This document shows positions 807 to 43,088 of a DNA stretch of 43,088 nucleotides, piece by piece. The stretch spans positions 1 through 43,088 of the IMG/VR virus record IMGVR_UViG_3300005468_000008; one strand, 5' to 3'. Each line of letters opens with the position of its first letter. Within the stretch, counting starts at the first letter, position 1. Made by a program: the position numbers and the translations under genes. The notes under the pieces were generated by a model. That model saw only the letters and a list, made by a program, of their open reading frames with translations. It was not told the DNA's origin and searched no databases. Source of the DNA: a virus.

Positions 807-1115
807 ATGACCTACACCGAAGCAAAAGAAGCAATCGAATCATCAGACCGGGCAACCCTGGAGTCGGCCCTTGCTGAGTTTGACGAGGAAATTGTACTTG
901 CCGCGATAGCTTGCTCCATCAATCTCTCCGATATTGGAGAGGCGTACCAAGGTAGACACGCATCCGACGAGGATTTCGCCCAACAGCTATGTGAGGACGT
1001 CGGAGAGATCCCAAAAGATTTCCCGGCGTACATCCGTATTGACTGGGAAAGAACGGCGAGGAATATAATGATGGATTATTCGGAAGATAACGGACATTAT
1101 TTTCGCAACCTTTAG
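807..1115 (+). CDS. ardA: ArdA-like antirestriction protein (short form)
   Basis: The ORF-track entry is 795..1115; ATG 807 has better GGAG spacing. The acidic C-terminal half DEDFAQQLCEDVGEIPKDFPAYIRIDWERTARNIMMDYSEDNGHYFRNL follows the ArdA C-terminal pattern (IP..L..YID....ARDL...DY...G.YF). At about 103 aa it is shorter than canonical ArdA. Confidence 0.6.
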   Translation: MTYTEAKEAIESSDRATLESALAEFDEEIVLAAIACSINLSDIGEAYQGRHASDEDFAQQLCEDVGEIPKDFPAYIRIDWERTARNIMMDYSEDNGHYFRNL

Positions 1116-2341: not shown

Positions 2342-2911
2342 ATGACATTTAAACAGTTACAAGAAAAGATCGGCAAACAGAAACGCGCCGACTGGAAACA
2401 GCATCCCAACGGGAAGGGGTGGGTGAACAAGGCGGCAACCGTAGACGCTTCGGTGTTTATTGGAGACAGTGCAATCGTGTGGGCTGGTACGGTCTCGGGC
2501 GATGCGCAGGTCTACGGCAATGCGCAGGTCTACGGCAATGCGTGGGTCTACGGCTATGCGCGGGTCTACGGCAATGCGCAGGTCTACGGCTATGCGCGGG
2601 TCTACGGCAATGCGCAGGTCTACGGCAATGCGTGGGTCTACGGCAATGCGCAGGTCTACGGCAATGCGCAGGTCTACGGCAATGCGTGGGTCTACGGCAA
2701 TGCGTGGGAGAAATCCCCGCTCTACATCCAGGGTTCGCGTCATCCCCTCACAAACGCCAAACACGGCCACATACAAATTGGATGCCACCTCGGGACGTTC
2801 GCGTGGTGGGCTGAGAACTACAAACAGGTAGGCAAAGAGGCCGGGTACACCCCCGACGAAATCGAGGAATACGCCGAATACATCAAATTATTCAAGAAAG
2901 TAGGGCGATAG
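2342..2911 (+). CDS. Hexapeptide-repeat (left-handed beta-helix-like) protein
   Basis: 189 aa. The centre is 12 copies of G-[NYD]-A-[QWR]-V-Y. These are flanked by looser hexapeptide-like turns and by a C-terminal domain (SPLYIQGSRHPLTNAKHGHIQIGCH...). Confidence 0.8.
   Translation: MTFKQLQEKIGKQKRADWKQHPNGKGWVNKAATVDASVFIGDSAIVWAGTVSGDAQVYGNAQVYGNAWVYGYARVYGNAQVYGYARVYGNAQVYGNAWVYGNAQVYGNAQVYGNAWVYGNAWEKSPLYIQGSRHPLTNAKHGHIQIGCHLGTFAWWAENYKQVGKEAGYTPDEIEEYAEYIKLFKKVGR
2498..2713 (+). repeat. Tandem repeat, 12 x 18 bp (GGCAATGCGCAGGTCTAC)
   Basis: Units were read directly from the sequence. Only nucleotide 4 and nucleotides 10-11 of the unit vary, except in the last unit. Confidence 0.95.
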
Positions 2912-2913
2912 CC

Positions 2914-3954
2914 ATGTGTAAATTCTTAAGCGCAATCGTAAAACGTGACGGCGAGGTATTGTACCGTCCCGAAACAGACTCCCACGAGAACCTCGTGGAC
3001 TACTTTGGCTTGTCGGACTCGGGGGTGGATAACTTTGTGAGGGTGGAGTTTACATCGGACACCCCCGACAAACCGGATACCTATAAACTCCGGGTGGACG
3101 AGACAAAAACGCCCGCCTGGTTTGAGGAATATCGGGAGAAATCAATATCATATCTGCGTGACAAGATCAAGTCTATAATCGTCACGGGTGAGCGCAAAAT
3201 CCTGATGGGTGGGTGTTGGATATTGTCGGAGGCAAAGGTTGGGCGACTCTTGGCGACGAGGGTGATCTGGATGAAGAACTCTCAGGTCAACGAGATGCGG
3301 GAGAACTCTCGGGTCAACGTGATGTGGGAGAACTCTCAGGTCAACGCGATGCGGGAGAACTCTCAGGTCAACGCGATGCGGGGGAACTCTCGGGTCAACG
3401 TGATGTGGGAGAACTCTCGGGTCAACGTGATGTGGGAGAACTCTCAGGTCAACGAGATGCGGGAGAACTCTCGGGTCAACGTGATGTGGGAGAACTCTCA
3501 GGTCAACGTGATGTGGGAGAACTCTCAGGTCAACGCGATGCGGGGGAACTCTCAGGTCAACGAGATGCGGGGGAACTCTCAGGTCAACGAGATGTGGAAG
3601 AACTCTCAGGTCAACGAGATGCGGGAGAACTCTCGGGTCAACGTGATGCGGGAGAACTCTCAGGTCAACGCGATGCGGGGGAACTCTCAGGTCAACGTGA
3701 TGTGGGAGAACTCTCAGGTCAACGAGATGTGGAAGAACTCTCAGGTCAACGAGATGCGGGAGAACTCTCGGGTCAACGTGATGCGGGAGAACTCTCAGGT
3801 CAACGTGATGTGGGAGAACTCTTGGGTCAACGTGATGCGGGGGAACTCTCAGGTCAACGTGATGTGGGAGAACTCTTGGGTCAACGTGATGTTGGAGAAC
3901 TCCAAATCTCCCAACCCGCCCAAACAAGACTTCCGCGAAAAGGCTTCCCAATGA
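2914..3954 (+). CDS. Nonapeptide-repeat (predicted beta-solenoid) protein
   Basis: 346 aa. A non-repetitive N-terminal domain of about 120 aa is followed by 23 copies of [EGK]-N-S-[QRW]-V-N-[VAE]-M-[WRL]. The start follows the upstream stop by 2 nt, and the stop overlaps the next ATG (ATGA). Confidence 0.75.
   Translation: MCKFLSAIVKRDGEVLYRPETDSHENLVDYFGLSDSGVDNFVRVEFTSDTPDKPDTYKLRVDETKTPAWFEEYREKSISYLRDKIKSIIVTGERKILMGGCWILSEAKVGRLLATRVIWMKNSQVNEMRENSRVNVMWENSQVNAMRENSQVNAMRGNSRVNVMWENSRVNVMWENSQVNEMRENSRVNVMWENSQVNVMWENSQVNAMRGNSQVNEMRGNSQVNEMWKNSQVNEMRENSRVNVMRENSQVNAMRGNSQVNVMWENSQVNEMWKNSQVNEMRENSRVNVMRENSQVNVMWENSWVNVMRGNSQVNVMWENSWVNVMLENSKSPNPPKQDFREKASQ
3274..3894 (+). repeat. Tandem repeat, 23 x 27 bp (GAGAACTCTCAGGTCAACGTGATGTGG)
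   Basis: All 23 units were read out. 20 of 27 positions are invariant; variation is restricted to unit positions 1, 2, 10, 11, 20, 25 and 26. Confidence 0.95.
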
Positions 3955-4220
3955 CCGAGTTTACCAACATTTCACTCTACCCCCCCTCCATCCAAACGGG
4001 GAAAACGCAACACCCGGTCGTAATCGCCTGTATTGGGTGTCACGACGATTCCTTGGGGCTGACAGATGGCCCGGCTGAATCGGTGAGGCTCAACCTGTAC
4101 CGGAGTACTGCGTACCACTTGTGCCCAAAGTGTATCACGCCGGGACAGGCGGCCAGGAGGGATAAGGGGGTGACGGACTATCACCATCATAAATCGGCAG
4201 GGAAGAAGGTGGGGGGTTGA
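3951..4220 (+). CDS. Small zinc-ribbon protein (CxxC...CxxC)
   Basis: ATG 3951 overlaps the upstream stop (ATGA). Sequence begins MTEFTNISLYPP and carries CIGC and CPKC pairs. It shares a frame with the alternative repeat-frame ORF 3213..4220. Confidence 0.55.
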   Translation: MTEFTNISLYPPSIQTGKTQHPVVIACIGCHDDSLGLTDGPAESVRLNLYRSTAYHLCPKCITPGQAARRDKGVTDYHHHKSAGKKVGG

Positions 4221-9727: not shown

Positions 9728-10377
9728 TCGCGTTTAAGCCATATCGACTCCGGAAGATCGCGTCGCATCTCCCTATCACCCCAATAATCTTGGAGGTTGG
9801 GGCGGGATTCCACTCCCCATCCATCACTAGGAAATATATTCCACATTGCGTATACTATGGCATCGAGAAACCCGGGTACGAGGGGATCAACTCCACCCCC
9901 AACACACGCGACGACCTTGACTGTATTGACCGCCACATCCTCACCGATCTCGAACAGTGGCCTAACCTGGAAGAGCATGGGGTTCGGGAGAAGATGTTCG
10001 ACGCGGTGATTGCGGCCAACACCTTAGAACACCTCGCGCCAGCCACCGCCAAGTTCTATTTGACCCGTCTACCGCAATTCCTTAAATTGGGTGGCGTGTT
10101 CTACGTTGAGGTTCCAAGCCACCGCGTGTTCAAATGCTGGCTCCCGTCGAACTATGATGGCATCGAACACCGGGCCTTTCTTGACCTAGCCGACCTCATC
10201 AACCCCATATTGTCCACCTGTGAAATCTTGGAAGCCGGGACTAGGCGGGATTGGCGGAATATCCTGCGGTCTCCGTTGAGTCTGCCGGTCAAGTTGGCGT
10301 TTATGTCATCATACCCCACAGAATACACCGATCTTCTGGGGTTGTCGTATTACGTTTTGGCAAAAAGAAACCGATGA
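9724..10377 (+). CDS. Class I SAM-dependent methyltransferase
   Basis: Motif I ILEVGAG, and a post-motif DAVIAANTLEHL typical of Methyltransf_11-type enzymes. No DNA-MTase DPPY or PCQ motifs were seen. Confidence 0.8.
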   Translation: MIAFKPYRLRKIASHLPITPIILEVGAGFHSPSITRKYIPHCVYYGIEKPGYEGINSTPNTRDDLDCIDRHILTDLEQWPNLEEHGVREKMFDAVIAANTLEHLAPATAKFYLTRLPQFLKLGGVFYVEVPSHRVFKCWLPSNYDGIEHRAFLDLADLINPILSTCEILEAGTRRDWRNILRSPLSLPVKLAFMSSYPTEYTDLLGLSYYVLAKRNR

Positions 10378-10745
10378 AGACTAAGAACGATACCGTAGAC
10401 ATCTCCCGGCTCCACCCCGATCTCAAGGAAGTCCTCCCCTTTGTCGAGGCCGTCTACAATACCACCTTAGAAGAAATGGGTGTGGGGTGGGTTGAGATGG
10501 TTGTAACAAGTGGACACGAACTCACAAGCAAGCATGGTGTCGGCAGTAAACACTACACCGCGAACAACGAGTCCGGGCTGGGTGAGGCGGTGGACATCCG
10601 ATGTAACCTGTTGAATGGCACTCAGGGGACGGAGATGTGTGGGATGATTGCGAGACATCTAAGACTCCATTACCCAGGCAGGTTCAAATGTTTCTTCGAG
10701 GGATGCCTCAAACCGGAGGCTCATTGTCACATTCAATTAGCGTGA
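10374..10745 (+). CDS. Peptidase M15-like (Hedgehog/DD-peptidase fold) zinc hydrolase, candidate cell-wall hydrolase
   Basis: ATG 10374 overlaps the methyltransferase stop (ATGA); the ORF track extends to 10251. It has SGHE...SKH-x13-D (GEAVDI) and a terminal H-C-H, resembling the H..D...H zinc triad of M15 peptidases. Confidence 0.6.
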   Translation: MKTKNDTVDISRLHPDLKEVLPFVEAVYNTTLEEMGVGWVEMVVTSGHELTSKHGVGSKHYTANNESGLGEAVDIRCNLLNGTQGTEMCGMIARHLRLHYPGRFKCFFEGCLKPEAHCHIQLA

Positions 10746-11306: not shown

Positions 11307-11416
11307 TCGACTACCTCCTTCTCCTGTGCATGACGCTCCTCGCCGTAGGATTCATTCTTGTTCCTCTGGCCTACCTACTGAGGCCAAGGAAACGCAAACA
11401 ACATCCACATCTATGA
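11303..11416 (+). CDS. Small membrane peptide (37 aa)
   Basis: ATGA overlaps at both ends. Sequence: MIDYLLLLCMTLLAVGFILVPLAYLLRPRKRKQHPHL. Below the ORF-track cutoff. Confidence 0.4.
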   Translation: MIDYLLLLCMTLLAVGFILVPLAYLLRPRKRKQHPHL

Positions 11417-11910
11417 AAAAGAACCCACGATTAAAGGCGGTTCCCGGGTATCCGGGATACTTCGCGACTAGGGATGGGTTTGTGTGGTCAAAAAGAAAAG
11501 GCGGCCTCATTAGACTTCGTCCATACACTAATAGAACCGGGCATCAGTGTATTGTTTTCTCATACCCAGGCAAGAAGACTACTAGGCTCGTCCACCGCGT
11601 GATACTCGAAACTTTTGTAGGCCCATGTCCACCAAAACATGAAAGCCTACATGGGCCAAACGGTGTGGTGGATAACTCGGCGGGAAACCTCCGATGGGGA
11701 ACGAGGTCGGAGAATGAGTTAGACAAGGCCCGCGACGGAACGTCCCTGCGCGGAGAGAATCATTTCAAGGCTAAACTGAAAGAGGTGGATGTGAAATTGA
11801 TTAGAATAATGTATCCCCGATACACTCAGACGATGATCGCTAAAATTTTCGGGGTGCAGAGGGAAACAGTGGGCAGTATAGTGCGTGGCATCAATTGGGG
11901 GTGGCTATGA
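11413..11910 (+). CDS. NUMOD4-HNH homing endonuclease (paralogue 1)
   Basis: It has the N-terminal VPGYPGYFATRDGFVWS (NUMOD4) and VHRVILETFVGP...HGPNGVVDNSAGNLRWGTRSEN (HNH_3). The C-terminus is the HTH IAKIFGVQRETVGSIVRGINW. The ORF-track start 11326 is probably too early. Confidence 0.85.
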   Translation: MKKNPRLKAVPGYPGYFATRDGFVWSKRKGGLIRLRPYTNRTGHQCIVFSYPGKKTTRLVHRVILETFVGPCPPKHESLHGPNGVVDNSAGNLRWGTRSENELDKARDGTSLRGENHFKAKLKEVDVKLIRIMYPRYTQTMIAKIFGVQRETVGSIVRGINWGWL

Positions 11911-15287: not shown

Positions 15288-16598
15288 ATGACTAAGATCA
15301 GTCGCCTGATTCTACCCACCCTGGCCCTCCTTTTACTCAATACTCTGAGTAATTCACAAGACCTCGTTCGCTACGTCTGGATACCCTCATGGGACGTAAA
15401 CATCCCATCGACTACCTCGAACTATGGTGACATGCCGCTCTCGGAGTTCAGGTGGAGCGTGGGTACACACTACTCCTCGTTTGCCGTCCCGATGGCCTCA
15501 AATGGCTCCTCGATCACATGGAACAATCTCCTGATCGACCGGAGGCAACAGGTGAACGCGGCGGCACACGCGGCGGGTAAGCCTATATATTTGTGCCTTG
15601 GGGGGTCTGGGTCTGACGGGTGGATGACTTCGGCGTTCTCACCGGCAAACAGGGCCAACGCGATCCAAACGTTACTCGCGGCTCGCAGAGAATACAAGTA
15701 CGACGGGTTTGACTTCGATTGGGAGCCGTTCGGTAGGTCTGACACCGCAATCTTCTATCCCTTTGTCCGTGAACTCTATGCCGCCCTTGCCAACGAACCA
15801 ACCTACTTCGGCACACCGGAACGTCCAGCAATCGTCCTCACCATGTCCCCTGCCGGGAACCAGTGGGGGTTAGCGTTGAAACCGATGGGACCCTACCTCA
15901 AGTTTGTCGTCCTGATGGCTTACGACAAGATGGGGACGTGGACCGTCGTATCGTACTACGATTGCGCGGTGACATCCGGTGGGGTGCGTGTAGGCTCACA
16001 GGAGCCAGCCACAATGGAGCGTCAGGCCGGACAAACAGTGGGCTTCGACCCCAAGAAGATCATTGTTGGCCTGGATGTGATGGGGGCATTAATGAGCGGC
16101 GTGACAGCCCCAATGCAAACCATCCCGTCCGGCGTAACCATCAACGCAGACTACAAGTTCGACACATTCTACCGGGATGTGCTGATGGCTGATCCCAAGC
16201 CGGAGATAAAGTACGACGCCGTGGCGGGTGCGTATTGGTGTGCTAAGGGTGGGAACTTCTACTCGTTCATGGGTGCGCCGGGGCACGACCTGGCAATCGG
16301 CAAGGCGTTCTCATTCCTCAAGGGGAAGGGGTACGGTGGTGTCGCCTTGTGGAATTGGTCGGAAGCCTACTTGGGGTTTACCAAGTTCACCCCATCCAAC
16401 TATCCGGTCTTGGATAGGGACTGGGCTGGAAGCGCGTTCCTCAAGTATGCCGGGGTGGTAGTCCCACCTCCTCCCCCGCCACCCCCAACCGATACATCAG
16501 CGTGTGACACGGTGTACCGGGTTATCACGATCAGAGATTCCCTGTTCTTCCGGCTTGTGCCCATTATCTCCGGGTACGACACCGTGAGGGTGAGGTAG
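15288..16598 (+). CDS. Secreted glycoside hydrolase family 18 (chitinase-like) protein
   Basis: Signal peptide MTKISRLILPTLALLLLNTLSNS. The GH18 catalytic motif DGFDFDWE is present. A run of nine prolines forms a linker to a short C-terminal segment. Confidence 0.85.
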   Translation: MTKISRLILPTLALLLLNTLSNSQDLVRYVWIPSWDVNIPSTTSNYGDMPLSEFRWSVGTHYSSFAVPMASNGSSITWNNLLIDRRQQVNAAAHAAGKPIYLCLGGSGSDGWMTSAFSPANRANAIQTLLAARREYKYDGFDFDWEPFGRSDTAIFYPFVRELYAALANEPTYFGTPERPAIVLTMSPAGNQWGLALKPMGPYLKFVVLMAYDKMGTWTVVSYYDCAVTSGGVRVGSQEPATMERQAGQTVGFDPKKIIVGLDVMGALMSGVTAPMQTIPSGVTINADYKFDTFYRDVLMADPKPEIKYDAVAGAYWCAKGGNFYSFMGAPGHDLAIGKAFSFLKGKGYGGVALWNWSEAYLGFTKFTPSNYPVLDRDWAGSAFLKYAGVVVPPPPPPPPTDTSACDTVYRVITIRDSLFFRLVPIISGYDTVRVR

Positions 16599-18261: not shown

Positions 18262-18328
18262 TCTGGAAGACCCGTGGGGGACAACCGGTGGGAGCGGTGG
18301 GAAGGTAAAAAAGAGGGAGGTTGAATAA
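18137..18328 (+). CDS. Possible small ORF in the +1 frame overlapping the previous gene end
   Basis: 63-aa ORF whose composition looks more protein-like than the overlapping frame. There is no SD. It ends 4 nt before the next gene. Confidence 0.3.
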   Translation: MTKKKVRPQPNKEPVETPTLPTHLQKWVDENGLPSTVRIPDDLEDPWGTTGGSGGKVKKREVE

Positions 18329-18332
18329 GAGT

Positions 18333-18845
18333 ATGAGAGCTATATCGGGTTTCCCCGGTTACTTCGCAACGGAGGGCGGGAATATCTACTCGATTAAACG
18401 TCGGGGGCGACATGGTGGGTATGGCCCACTCCACAAGCTTGTGCCAACGAGAGACCGAGAGGGCTATCTTATCGTGAATCTGTATAGGGGTGGAAAGCCG
18501 CACCTTCGGATGGTGCATCGGCTAGTTTTGGAAACTTTCATAGGCCCGCGCCCATTGGGGATGGAGTGCTGTCATGGGCCGAGCGGAAAACTCGACAACT
18601 CTATCGGGAATCTTGTGTGGGGTACGCGCTCCAAAAATTATGGCGAGGATAGGGTGAGAGATGGCACTCATTGTCGAGGCGAACGTCATCCATTCGCCAA
18701 ACTCAATTCTCTTCAGGCTCGCGTGATCCGGCGGGCCTATTCCAAGAGAGGGGGTGGTGGGCTGTCTGGGCCAGCATTAGCAAGAGTTTTCTTGGTAAGC
18801 CACTCGACAATCGGTCGGATTATCAGGATGGAGAGCTATGTCTAG
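18333..18845 (+). CDS. NUMOD4-HNH homing endonuclease (paralogue 2)
   Basis: ISGFPGYFATEGGNIYS (NUMOD4), VHRLVLETFIGP...HGPSGKLDNSIGNLVWGTRSKN (HNH_3) and a C-terminal HTH LARVFLVSHSTIGRIIR. This is the last gene of the rightward arm. Confidence 0.85.
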   Translation: MRAISGFPGYFATEGGNIYSIKRRGRHGGYGPLHKLVPTRDREGYLIVNLYRGGKPHLRMVHRLVLETFIGPRPLGMECCHGPSGKLDNSIGNLVWGTRSKNYGEDRVRDGTHCRGERHPFAKLNSLQARVIRRAYSKRGGGGLSGPALARVFLVSHSTIGRIIRMESYV

Positions 18846-42978: not shown

Positions 42979-43088
42979 TGTATTCGAATCTACACCCATT
43001 TGAGGGGAAACCTTGTCGCCTCCGGCGAGGTTCGTTTCGTTCACTTTGTTAGGGGATTCGTGGGGAATCGGTGATTATGGCACGCTCT
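42979..43088. repeat. Terminal redundancy, copy 2 (identical to 1-110)
   Basis: Base-for-base identity with positions 1-110. Confidence 0.97.

Follow-up and report, generated by a model that had tools for sequence, protein, structure and literature searches.

The window, as the stretch analyzed here will be called, is the whole of the IMG/VR virus record IMGVR_UViG_3300005468_000008 (positions 1 to 43,088; 43,088 nt). Its first 110 nucleotides are identical to positions 42979–43088, which indicates a complete circular phage genome of about 42,978 bp; the genome has 54% G+C and a P22-type portal and terminase, and is that of a P22-like phage. The subject of this study is an early protein of that phage, encoded on the plus strand at 2914–3954, whose 346 residues begin with a conserved N-terminal domain, continue through 23 nonapeptide repeats, and end in a short tail. 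The repeats are encoded by a tandem array of 23 units of 27 bp (3274–3894, plus strand), and the way in which these units differ from one another, both in the window and in its relatives, is our principal concern. The reading frame is secure because the ATG start lies three bases past the upstream stop (2911), the stop overlaps the start of the next gene as ATGA at 3951, and homologues are conserved in frame across 2914–3954. Further long open reading frames (ORFs) over the array, whether in alternative frames or on the minus strand, were set aside as by-products of a stop-free repeat. The N-terminal domain (residues 1–120; 2914–3273) is delimited by alignments and by an AlphaFold model, in which its predicted local distance difference test score (pLDDT) is 92.8. 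The C-terminal tail (KSPNPPKQDFREKASQ), which with the stop codon occupies 3904–3954, is predicted to be disordered (pLDDT <50, residues 330–346).

Read in frame, the array encodes units of the form (E/G/K)NS(Q/R/W)VN(V/A/E)M(W/R/L). Tandem Repeats Finder places it at 3275–3902, with a period of 27 bp, 23.3 copies, 91% matches, and 0 indels, and a partial unit 24 (GAGAACTCC, encoding E-N-S; 3895–3903) forms its decayed 3′ edge. Seven of the 27 columns vary (1, 2, 10, 11, 20, 25, and 26); all seven are first or second codon positions, and they fall in codons 1, 4, 7, and 9. The array contains eight variant states, every one of them non-synonymous and none synonymous, while the codons for N (AAC), S (TCT), V (GTC), N (AAC), and M (ATG) are invariant across the 23 units. 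The initial annotation of this DNA, made from the sequence alone, had described the array in very similar terms—23 in-frame units with 20 of 27 nucleotides fixed, five constant codons, and exclusively amino acid-changing differences confined to four codons—and our counts agree with it in each of these respects. The linkage that it reported between positions was also recovered: R4 or W4 is always paired with V7 (8/8 units, P = 0.001), and A7 is always paired with R9 (4/4 units, P = 0.056). Its estimate of about eight unit types was too low, as 13 distinct types were counted. The longest exact internal repeat spans 98 bp, with one copy at 3573–3670 and a second, five units downstream, at 3708–3805; this exact duplicate marks a recent multi-unit duplication. 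All k-mers of at least 99 bases in the array are unique, and the window array therefore assembles without ambiguity.

In the window alone, the lack of synonymous variant states (0 of 8) has a probability of P = 0.11, and the confinement of seven columns to at most four codons, with no third position among them, has P = 0.0011; the pattern is clearly non-random because relatives show it too. Eight arrays were pooled for this comparison: those of the window, L002, L004, L005, L006, and L012, together with an array of 8-residue repeats (L010) and one of pentapeptide repeats (L011). Several of the genomes concerned differ widely in base composition (L002, 35% G+C; L004, 31%; L005, 56%; L012, 31%). 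The pooled arrays hold 2 synonymous and 38 non-synonymous variant states, where 9.8 synonymous states would be expected (binomial P = 0.0012), a roughly sixfold excess of non-synonymous variants. The initial annotation had argued that neutral drift of an old repeat would not produce such a pattern and had proposed a comparison with related DNA; that comparison confirms the synonymous deficit in seven further arrays, and neutral drift does not account for the pooled counts. In each relative's array, columns are uniform except within the equivalent variable codons. The fixed codons themselves show synonymous differences from one lineage to another (AAC/AAT, TCT/AGT/TCA/TCC, and GTC/GTA). Uniformity within arrays, combined with synonymous differences between lineages, reflects concerted evolution under purifying selection.

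The protein sequences extend this pattern well beyond the pooled set. In a set of 109 nonapeptide arrays (1,094 units), polymorphism within the array occurs at position 1 in 106 arrays and at positions 7 and 9 in all 109, and at positions 2, 3, and 5 in just 27, 8, and 25, respectively. The dominant states are E (45%) and G (35%) at position 1, E (41%) and V (26%) at position 7, and R (43%) and W (35%) at position 9; the second residue at position 7 is lineage-dependent and may be V, A, T, L, M, K, or R. State frequencies lie near one half, and states are almost uncorrelated both within units and between neighboring units. Arginine at position 9 is encoded without exception by CGG or AGG, both a single step from TGG, and this holds also in genomes that seldom use these codons for arginine (P = 0.005). 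The nonapeptide occurs with the same mixed positions in relatives that retain only 30–60% identity in the N-terminal domain. The initial annotation had pointed to recent expansion or to diversification; a local or recent diversification does not survive the recurrence of the E/G, E/V, and W/R pairs across relatives this divergent and across genomes of 31 to 56% G+C. Judging from these sequence comparisons, the mixture is a constrained dimorphism kept throughout the family, as opposed to open-ended diversification, and the array pattern is a property of the whole large family and not a local event.

That family, which we refer to as the N-domain solenoid family, is defined here by an N-terminal domain of ~120 residues followed by a short-period repeat array. 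A word-index protein search with the window protein returned 152 homologues, all of them hypothetical proteins, and when the N-terminal domain was used in an exhaustive profile search, 2,626 clusters at 50% identity were recovered (E ≤ 1e-3). The domain is always N-terminal and the array follows it directly, with periods of 9, 18, 27, 8, 16, or 5 residues, mostly 9-mers. Residues F4, S6, H24, E45, D62, P67, and W69 are invariant in the sampled relatives and S23 is nearly so; the window protein carries the full set (MCxFxS start, S23-H24, E45, D62, P67, and W69). Cys2, directly after the initiator methionine, is also nearly invariant. From sequence conservation, these residues look like a catalytic or metal-binding set. 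Bona fide pentapeptide repeats (P0184 and P0186; L011 1722–2474) and 8-residue repeats of the form AGYATIQD (P0198; L010 3001–3837) are found fused to the same N-terminal domain, and the occurrence of 5-, 8-, and 9-residue repeats on one domain indicates that the type of solenoid is interchangeable. A second architecture was also observed, in which the identical nonapeptide (P0010, P0018, P0036, P0037, P0077, and P0097; L012 3001–4311) follows a different short N-terminus and precedes a C-terminal domain of about 150 residues; this C-terminal domain resembles DUF7666, at a score below the Pfam threshold (25 vs 27 bits).

The N-domain solenoid family is undescribed and widespread, and almost all of its members come from uncultured phages. 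Homologues were found in 2 of 50,697 GenBank phage records, both weak and both uncultured, and scans of IMG/VR and of GTDB genomes with back-translated peptides recovered no relatives. Neither the window protein nor its N-terminal domain drew a meaningful match from Pfam, NCBIfam, PHROGs, or PADLOC, and no Pfam family matched the window protein at E ≤ 0.1. PDB sequence-profile searches with the protein and with the domain returned nothing at E ≤ 0.001, nor did Foldseek searches of the PDB with the whole model and with the N-terminal domain at the same threshold. A literature search on the N-domain solenoid family and on hypervariable phage tandem repeats found nothing on the family.

The array region is predicted to be an ordered beta-solenoid forming a rigid rod. 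The AlphaFold model, built with a 50-sequence alignment, has a pLDDT of 90 and a predicted template modeling score (pTM) of 0.83 for the whole protein, and most of the array reaches a pLDDT of 94–98. DSSP assigns one continuous five-residue strand to every nine residues, at unit positions 4–8, and the last strands of the N-terminal domain (about residues 89–120) cap the solenoid in the model. The ordered solenoid anticipated in the initial annotation is thus what the model predicts. The top structural matches in the PDB and in BFVD are all beta-helices or solenoids, consistent with a parallel beta-solenoid, although those in the PDB occur only at E ≥ 0.08 and those in BFVD are exclusively uncharacterized phage proteins. 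The variable positions 1, 4, 7, and 9 are probably outward-facing and exposed. The pentapeptide relative L011 varies only at positions 2, 4, and 5, which are the outward-facing positions in the solved pentapeptide fold (PMC10886550), and this lends support, by analogy, to the exposure of the four nonapeptide positions.

Copy number among close relatives ranges from 2 to 23 units, and otherwise identical phage genomes differ in the number and the order of their units. The contig L001 (ENA ERZ27264822, k141_1595067; array region 10001–10582), which also bridges the circular junction of the window genome, has 6 units where the window has 23. Its sequence is that of the window minus exactly 17 units (0–16), with ~11 kb of flanks at 100% identity, and one exchange, between unit 0 and unit 17 (identical over 51 nt), would account for the difference; this 6-unit array may be a genuine deletion variant, or else the contig was misjoined during assembly. 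Three 35-kb genomes (L006, L007, and L008) show 0 mismatches in 14.1 kb of flanking sequence, and carry 11, 5, and 10 units in differing orders. Further, members of clusters at 90% identity differ in length by multiples of nine residues while their N-terminal domains are identical. The initial annotation had proposed recent expansion with recombination, and the recombination is supported by the 98-bp duplicate, by L001, and by the 90% clusters, all of which speak for the gain, loss, and reshuffling of units; a local or recent diversification is not supported.

Concerted evolution of the repeat DNA is, in our assessment, probably opposed by selection for a mixed composition. The array would form a rigid beta-solenoid rod mounted on the ~120-residue N-terminal domain of a phage early protein, and two forces would act on it. 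Unequal exchange or slippage between 27-bp units would often duplicate, delete, and reshuffle them, and this frequent turnover would keep the unit DNA uniform, such that synonymous differences never accumulate within an array. Selection at the level of the protein would fix the structural residues N2, S3, V5, N6, and M8, and would at the same time keep a roughly 50:50 mixture at positions 1 (E/G), 7 (E/V or another hydrophobic residue), and 9 (W/R), and sometimes at position 4 (Q/R/W), the mixed residues at each of these positions being one nucleotide apart. Composition would matter under this scheme, and order would not. The most likely reason for maintaining such a mixture is that a surface of mixed charged, aromatic, and hydrophobic residues may keep a long, near-perfect solenoid soluble and near neutral while also providing a binding face. 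A role as a binding protein in host takeover or anti-defense is suggested by the position of the gene in the early region, and can be put forward only tentatively.

Several observations weigh against this reading. Nearly all relatives come from short-read metagenome assemblies, and the internal exact repeats are shorter than 100 bp in every array examined; more uniform arrays would not assemble, and the impression that every array is mixed is therefore partly one of ascertainment. The differences in copy number and order between otherwise identical genomes were seen in MEGAHIT short-read contigs and may be alternative assembly paths. Some arrays are stable across samples: those of L002 and L003 agree, and that of P0010 recurs on 6 contigs. 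With regard to exposure, a single strand at positions 4–8 with simple in/out alternation would place positions 4 and 7 on opposite sides. The covariation of acidic and basic residue densities across arrays (r = 0.40, P = 1.5e-5), which speaks for the reading, is a correlation computed without phylogenetic correction. Ascertainment through assembly does not, however, account for the avoidance of synonymous sites.

A more ambitious interpretation of the same observations would regard these phage early proteins as a hitherto unrecognized class of self-diversifying binding proteins, in which a conserved N-terminal effector domain is joined to a solenoid whose outward residues and length are re-dealt by recombination within the array. 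We regard this as doubtful. If it were true, each phage population would hold a repertoire of surfaces with which to inhibit or escape variable host defense proteins, and the arrays would amount to a recombination-based analogue of the targets of diversity-generating retroelements or of transcription activator-like (TAL) effector and variable lymphocyte receptor (VLR) arrays; the YdcK-type array of the neighboring gene, described below, and the 8-mer and pentapeptide versions would work likewise.

A related possibility is an arms race, in which a host target that varies is bound through positions 1, 4, 7, and 9, or a host immune sensor detects them, and both the shuffling of units and the changes within them are positively selected. 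Such a reading would be in keeping with the non-synonymous excess at fixed positions, with arrays that differ among otherwise identical phage genomes, with an early region rich in anti-defense genes, and with a second residue at position 7 that changes from lineage to lineage (V, A, T, L, M, K, or R). Leucine-rich-repeat immune receptors offer a parallel, in that fixed structural residues are interleaved with variable ones (the x in xxLxLxx) and non-synonymous substitution exceeds synonymous (dN > dS); they differ in fold, repeat length, and biological setting, and here it is concerted evolution that keeps the unit DNA identical. An arms race nevertheless seems unlikely, as two residues dominate each position even in very divergent lineages, the order of states is statistically random, and some arrays are identical across samples. 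The recurrence of the same two residues across deep lineages, together with random order, fits a biophysical or binding-surface constraint better than either an arms race or a code of the TAL type.

It could also be supposed that the pattern is a matter of chance or artifact, arising from the recent amplification of a few founder units or from the chimeric assembly of a mixed population. The non-significant result for the window alone (0/8 synonymous, P = 0.11), the 6-unit version in the MEGAHIT k141 contig L001 of an otherwise identical genome, and the short-read metagenomes from which the data derive would all accord with this. But the same pattern is present in seven further arrays of independent lineages and in 109 protein arrays, the k-mers of at least 99 bases that are unique in the window make for an unambiguous assembly, and assembly error cannot restrict variation to non-synonymous sites; an explanation by chance or artifact is, on balance, very unlikely.

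A code comparable to that of TAL effectors, in which every unit would recognize a single element of a periodic ligand (DNA, RNA, or polysaccharide) and the order of units would spell out the target, has the DNA signature in its favor: TAL effector arrays likewise consist of near-identical, recombination-homogenized repeats that differ in a few non-synonymous specificity codons, and their units are gained, lost, and shuffled. In TAL effectors, each repeat is an alpha-helical unit of 34 residues, the DNA code is proven, and the order carries meaning. The units described here, in contrast, are nine-residue beta units in near-random order, with two states dominating each site; the order is not kept among genomes with identical flanks, copy number runs from 2 to 23 among close relatives, and in other family members the same N-terminal domain carries 5-, 8-, or 9-residue repeats of quite different sequence, all of which makes a code highly improbable. 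Least probable of all is targeted mutagenesis, whereby a diversity-generating retroelement or other site-directed mutator would rewrite the variable codons: variation is limited to particular codons of a phage gene that probably encode exposed residues, as in retroelement targets, columns 2, 20, and 25 vary in every lineage, and the alternative codons are single-step neighbors, but there is no template repeat (all 23 unit matches with at most 3 mismatches lie inside the array) and no reverse transcriptase among the ORFs scanned, the variable bases (A/G, T/A/C, C/T, and G/T) show no specificity for adenine, no AAC codon varies, L004 has GAA and TTA as alternatives that lie two bases apart with 0 intermediates, and close relatives differ by apparent shuffling of units, not by point changes.

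Several narrower candidates were also considered and rejected. The initial annotation had raised the possibility of a DNA mimic, here understood as one of the Ocr or ArdA type, whose strongly acidic surface imitates the DNA backbone. Counts of charged residues give no indication of it: acidic residues number 0.96 and basic residues 0.91 per unit, for a net charge of –1 over the array, and the family median is –2 per array. A structural alternation of W/R or E/V at a lag of 2 or 3 left only a weak signal, in that autocorrelation was negative at lag 2 (z of about –2.2 to –2.5), and is not the main cause of the pattern. Deamination at CpG would fit changes from CGG to TGG or CAG and from GCG to GTG, but the CpG in the invariant AACG stays unchanged throughout, and in AT-rich relatives the same codons vary through other bases. 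Selection on the DNA to interrupt homology would be served equally well by synonymous changes, yet these are unused. Iterons, or another element acting at the level of DNA, were rejected because the unit differs from lineage to lineage at synonymous sites alone.

The array protein resembles several known solenoid families and belongs to none of them. The pentapeptide repeat proteins (PF00805; Qnr, MfpA) are likewise short-period parallel beta-solenoid rods, and the pentapeptide relatives that share the N-terminal domain (P0184 and P0186) vary only at outward positions; the window protein, however, has a period of 9 and not 5, lacks the A(D/N)LXX motif, has an array that is near neutral and not acidic, and has no Pfam match, so that it falls outside PF00805, to which its relative P0186 belongs. 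The RTX nonapeptide beta-roll (GGxGxDxUx) shares the nine-residue period, and the PDB fold match with the highest probability is 3p4g, a beta-helical antifreeze protein that depends on calcium; this match is weak (E = 0.15, TM-score 0.27). The unit xNSxVNxMx is unlike the beta-roll in having neither the GG nor the D of the calcium-binding motif and no Pfam match, and the window protein, which does not belong to that family, is a cytoplasmic phage early protein and not a secreted toxin. The left-handed beta-helix of YdcK and other hexapeptide proteins (PF18836, PF00132), and of bactofilin, offers a likeness in the unit itself (GNAQVY against ENSQVN), although each nonapeptide unit is longer by three residues (x-M-[W/R]) and the window protein matches neither PF18836 nor PF00132.

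The family is large and unannotated (about 2,600 clusters at 50% identity), with its genes in early blocks of a kind that can house anti-defense genes. Its arrays offer an unusually clean natural example of concerted evolution set against selection for heterogeneity within one molecule, as synonymous sites are homogenized while the same three to four residues stay mixed in lineages of 31 to 56% G+C. If the variation in arrays between genomes is real, these would be among the fastest-changing coding regions of phages and possible strain markers. The arrays also carry a practical warning, for short-read assembly can only just resolve them.

The array gene belongs to a rightward block of small early genes headed by an ArdA-like anti-restriction gene (807–1115, plus strand; PHROG 14321, E = 2.2e-12); the identical gene in L001 has a weak Pfam match to ArdA. 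In relatives, the neighbors are likewise small early genes, with RecT, ERF, and YqaJ close by and weak matches to Apyc1 and Acb2/Tad1 in the vicinity. Directly downstream, and translationally coupled through the ATGA overlap, lies a gene for an 89-aa protein (3951–4220, plus strand).

The upstream gene (2342–2911, plus strand) encodes a 189-aa hexapeptide beta-solenoid protein of the YdcK type (Pfam PF18836, E = 1.4e-18; PHROG 5070 and 7964), and so belongs to the very family with which the nonapeptide was compared above. It contains an array of its own, of 12 units of 18 bp (GNAQVY, GNAWVY, and GYARVY; 2498–2713, plus strand), in which variation is limited to codon 2 (N/Y/D) and codon 4 (CAG/CGG/TGG, encoding Q/R/W), with 0 synonymous differences. 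The two adjacent arrays thus share both the Q/R/W variation, in the same codons, and the absence of synonymous change, and the motif GN[AS]QV is common to the YdcK-type protein and the nonapeptide unit. The 18-bp array has 91.7% DNA identity to an array in the cultured Acidovorax phage AP1 (OM049504.1; L009 3001–3218), which is the only megablast match to the first 20 kb of the window. In the record of phage AP1, a hypothetical protein is assigned to the other strand of this region; the stop-free repeat may have led to a mis-call of the strand.

Elsewhere in the window, a 436-aa ORF (15288–16598, plus strand) matches glycosyl hydrolase family 18 and is chitinase-like (E = 9e-23), which is unusual for the replication or early-to-middle region of a phage. 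HNH endonuclease genes (PHROG 59, Pfam HNH_3) occur among the plus-strand genes at 11326–11910 and 18321–18845.

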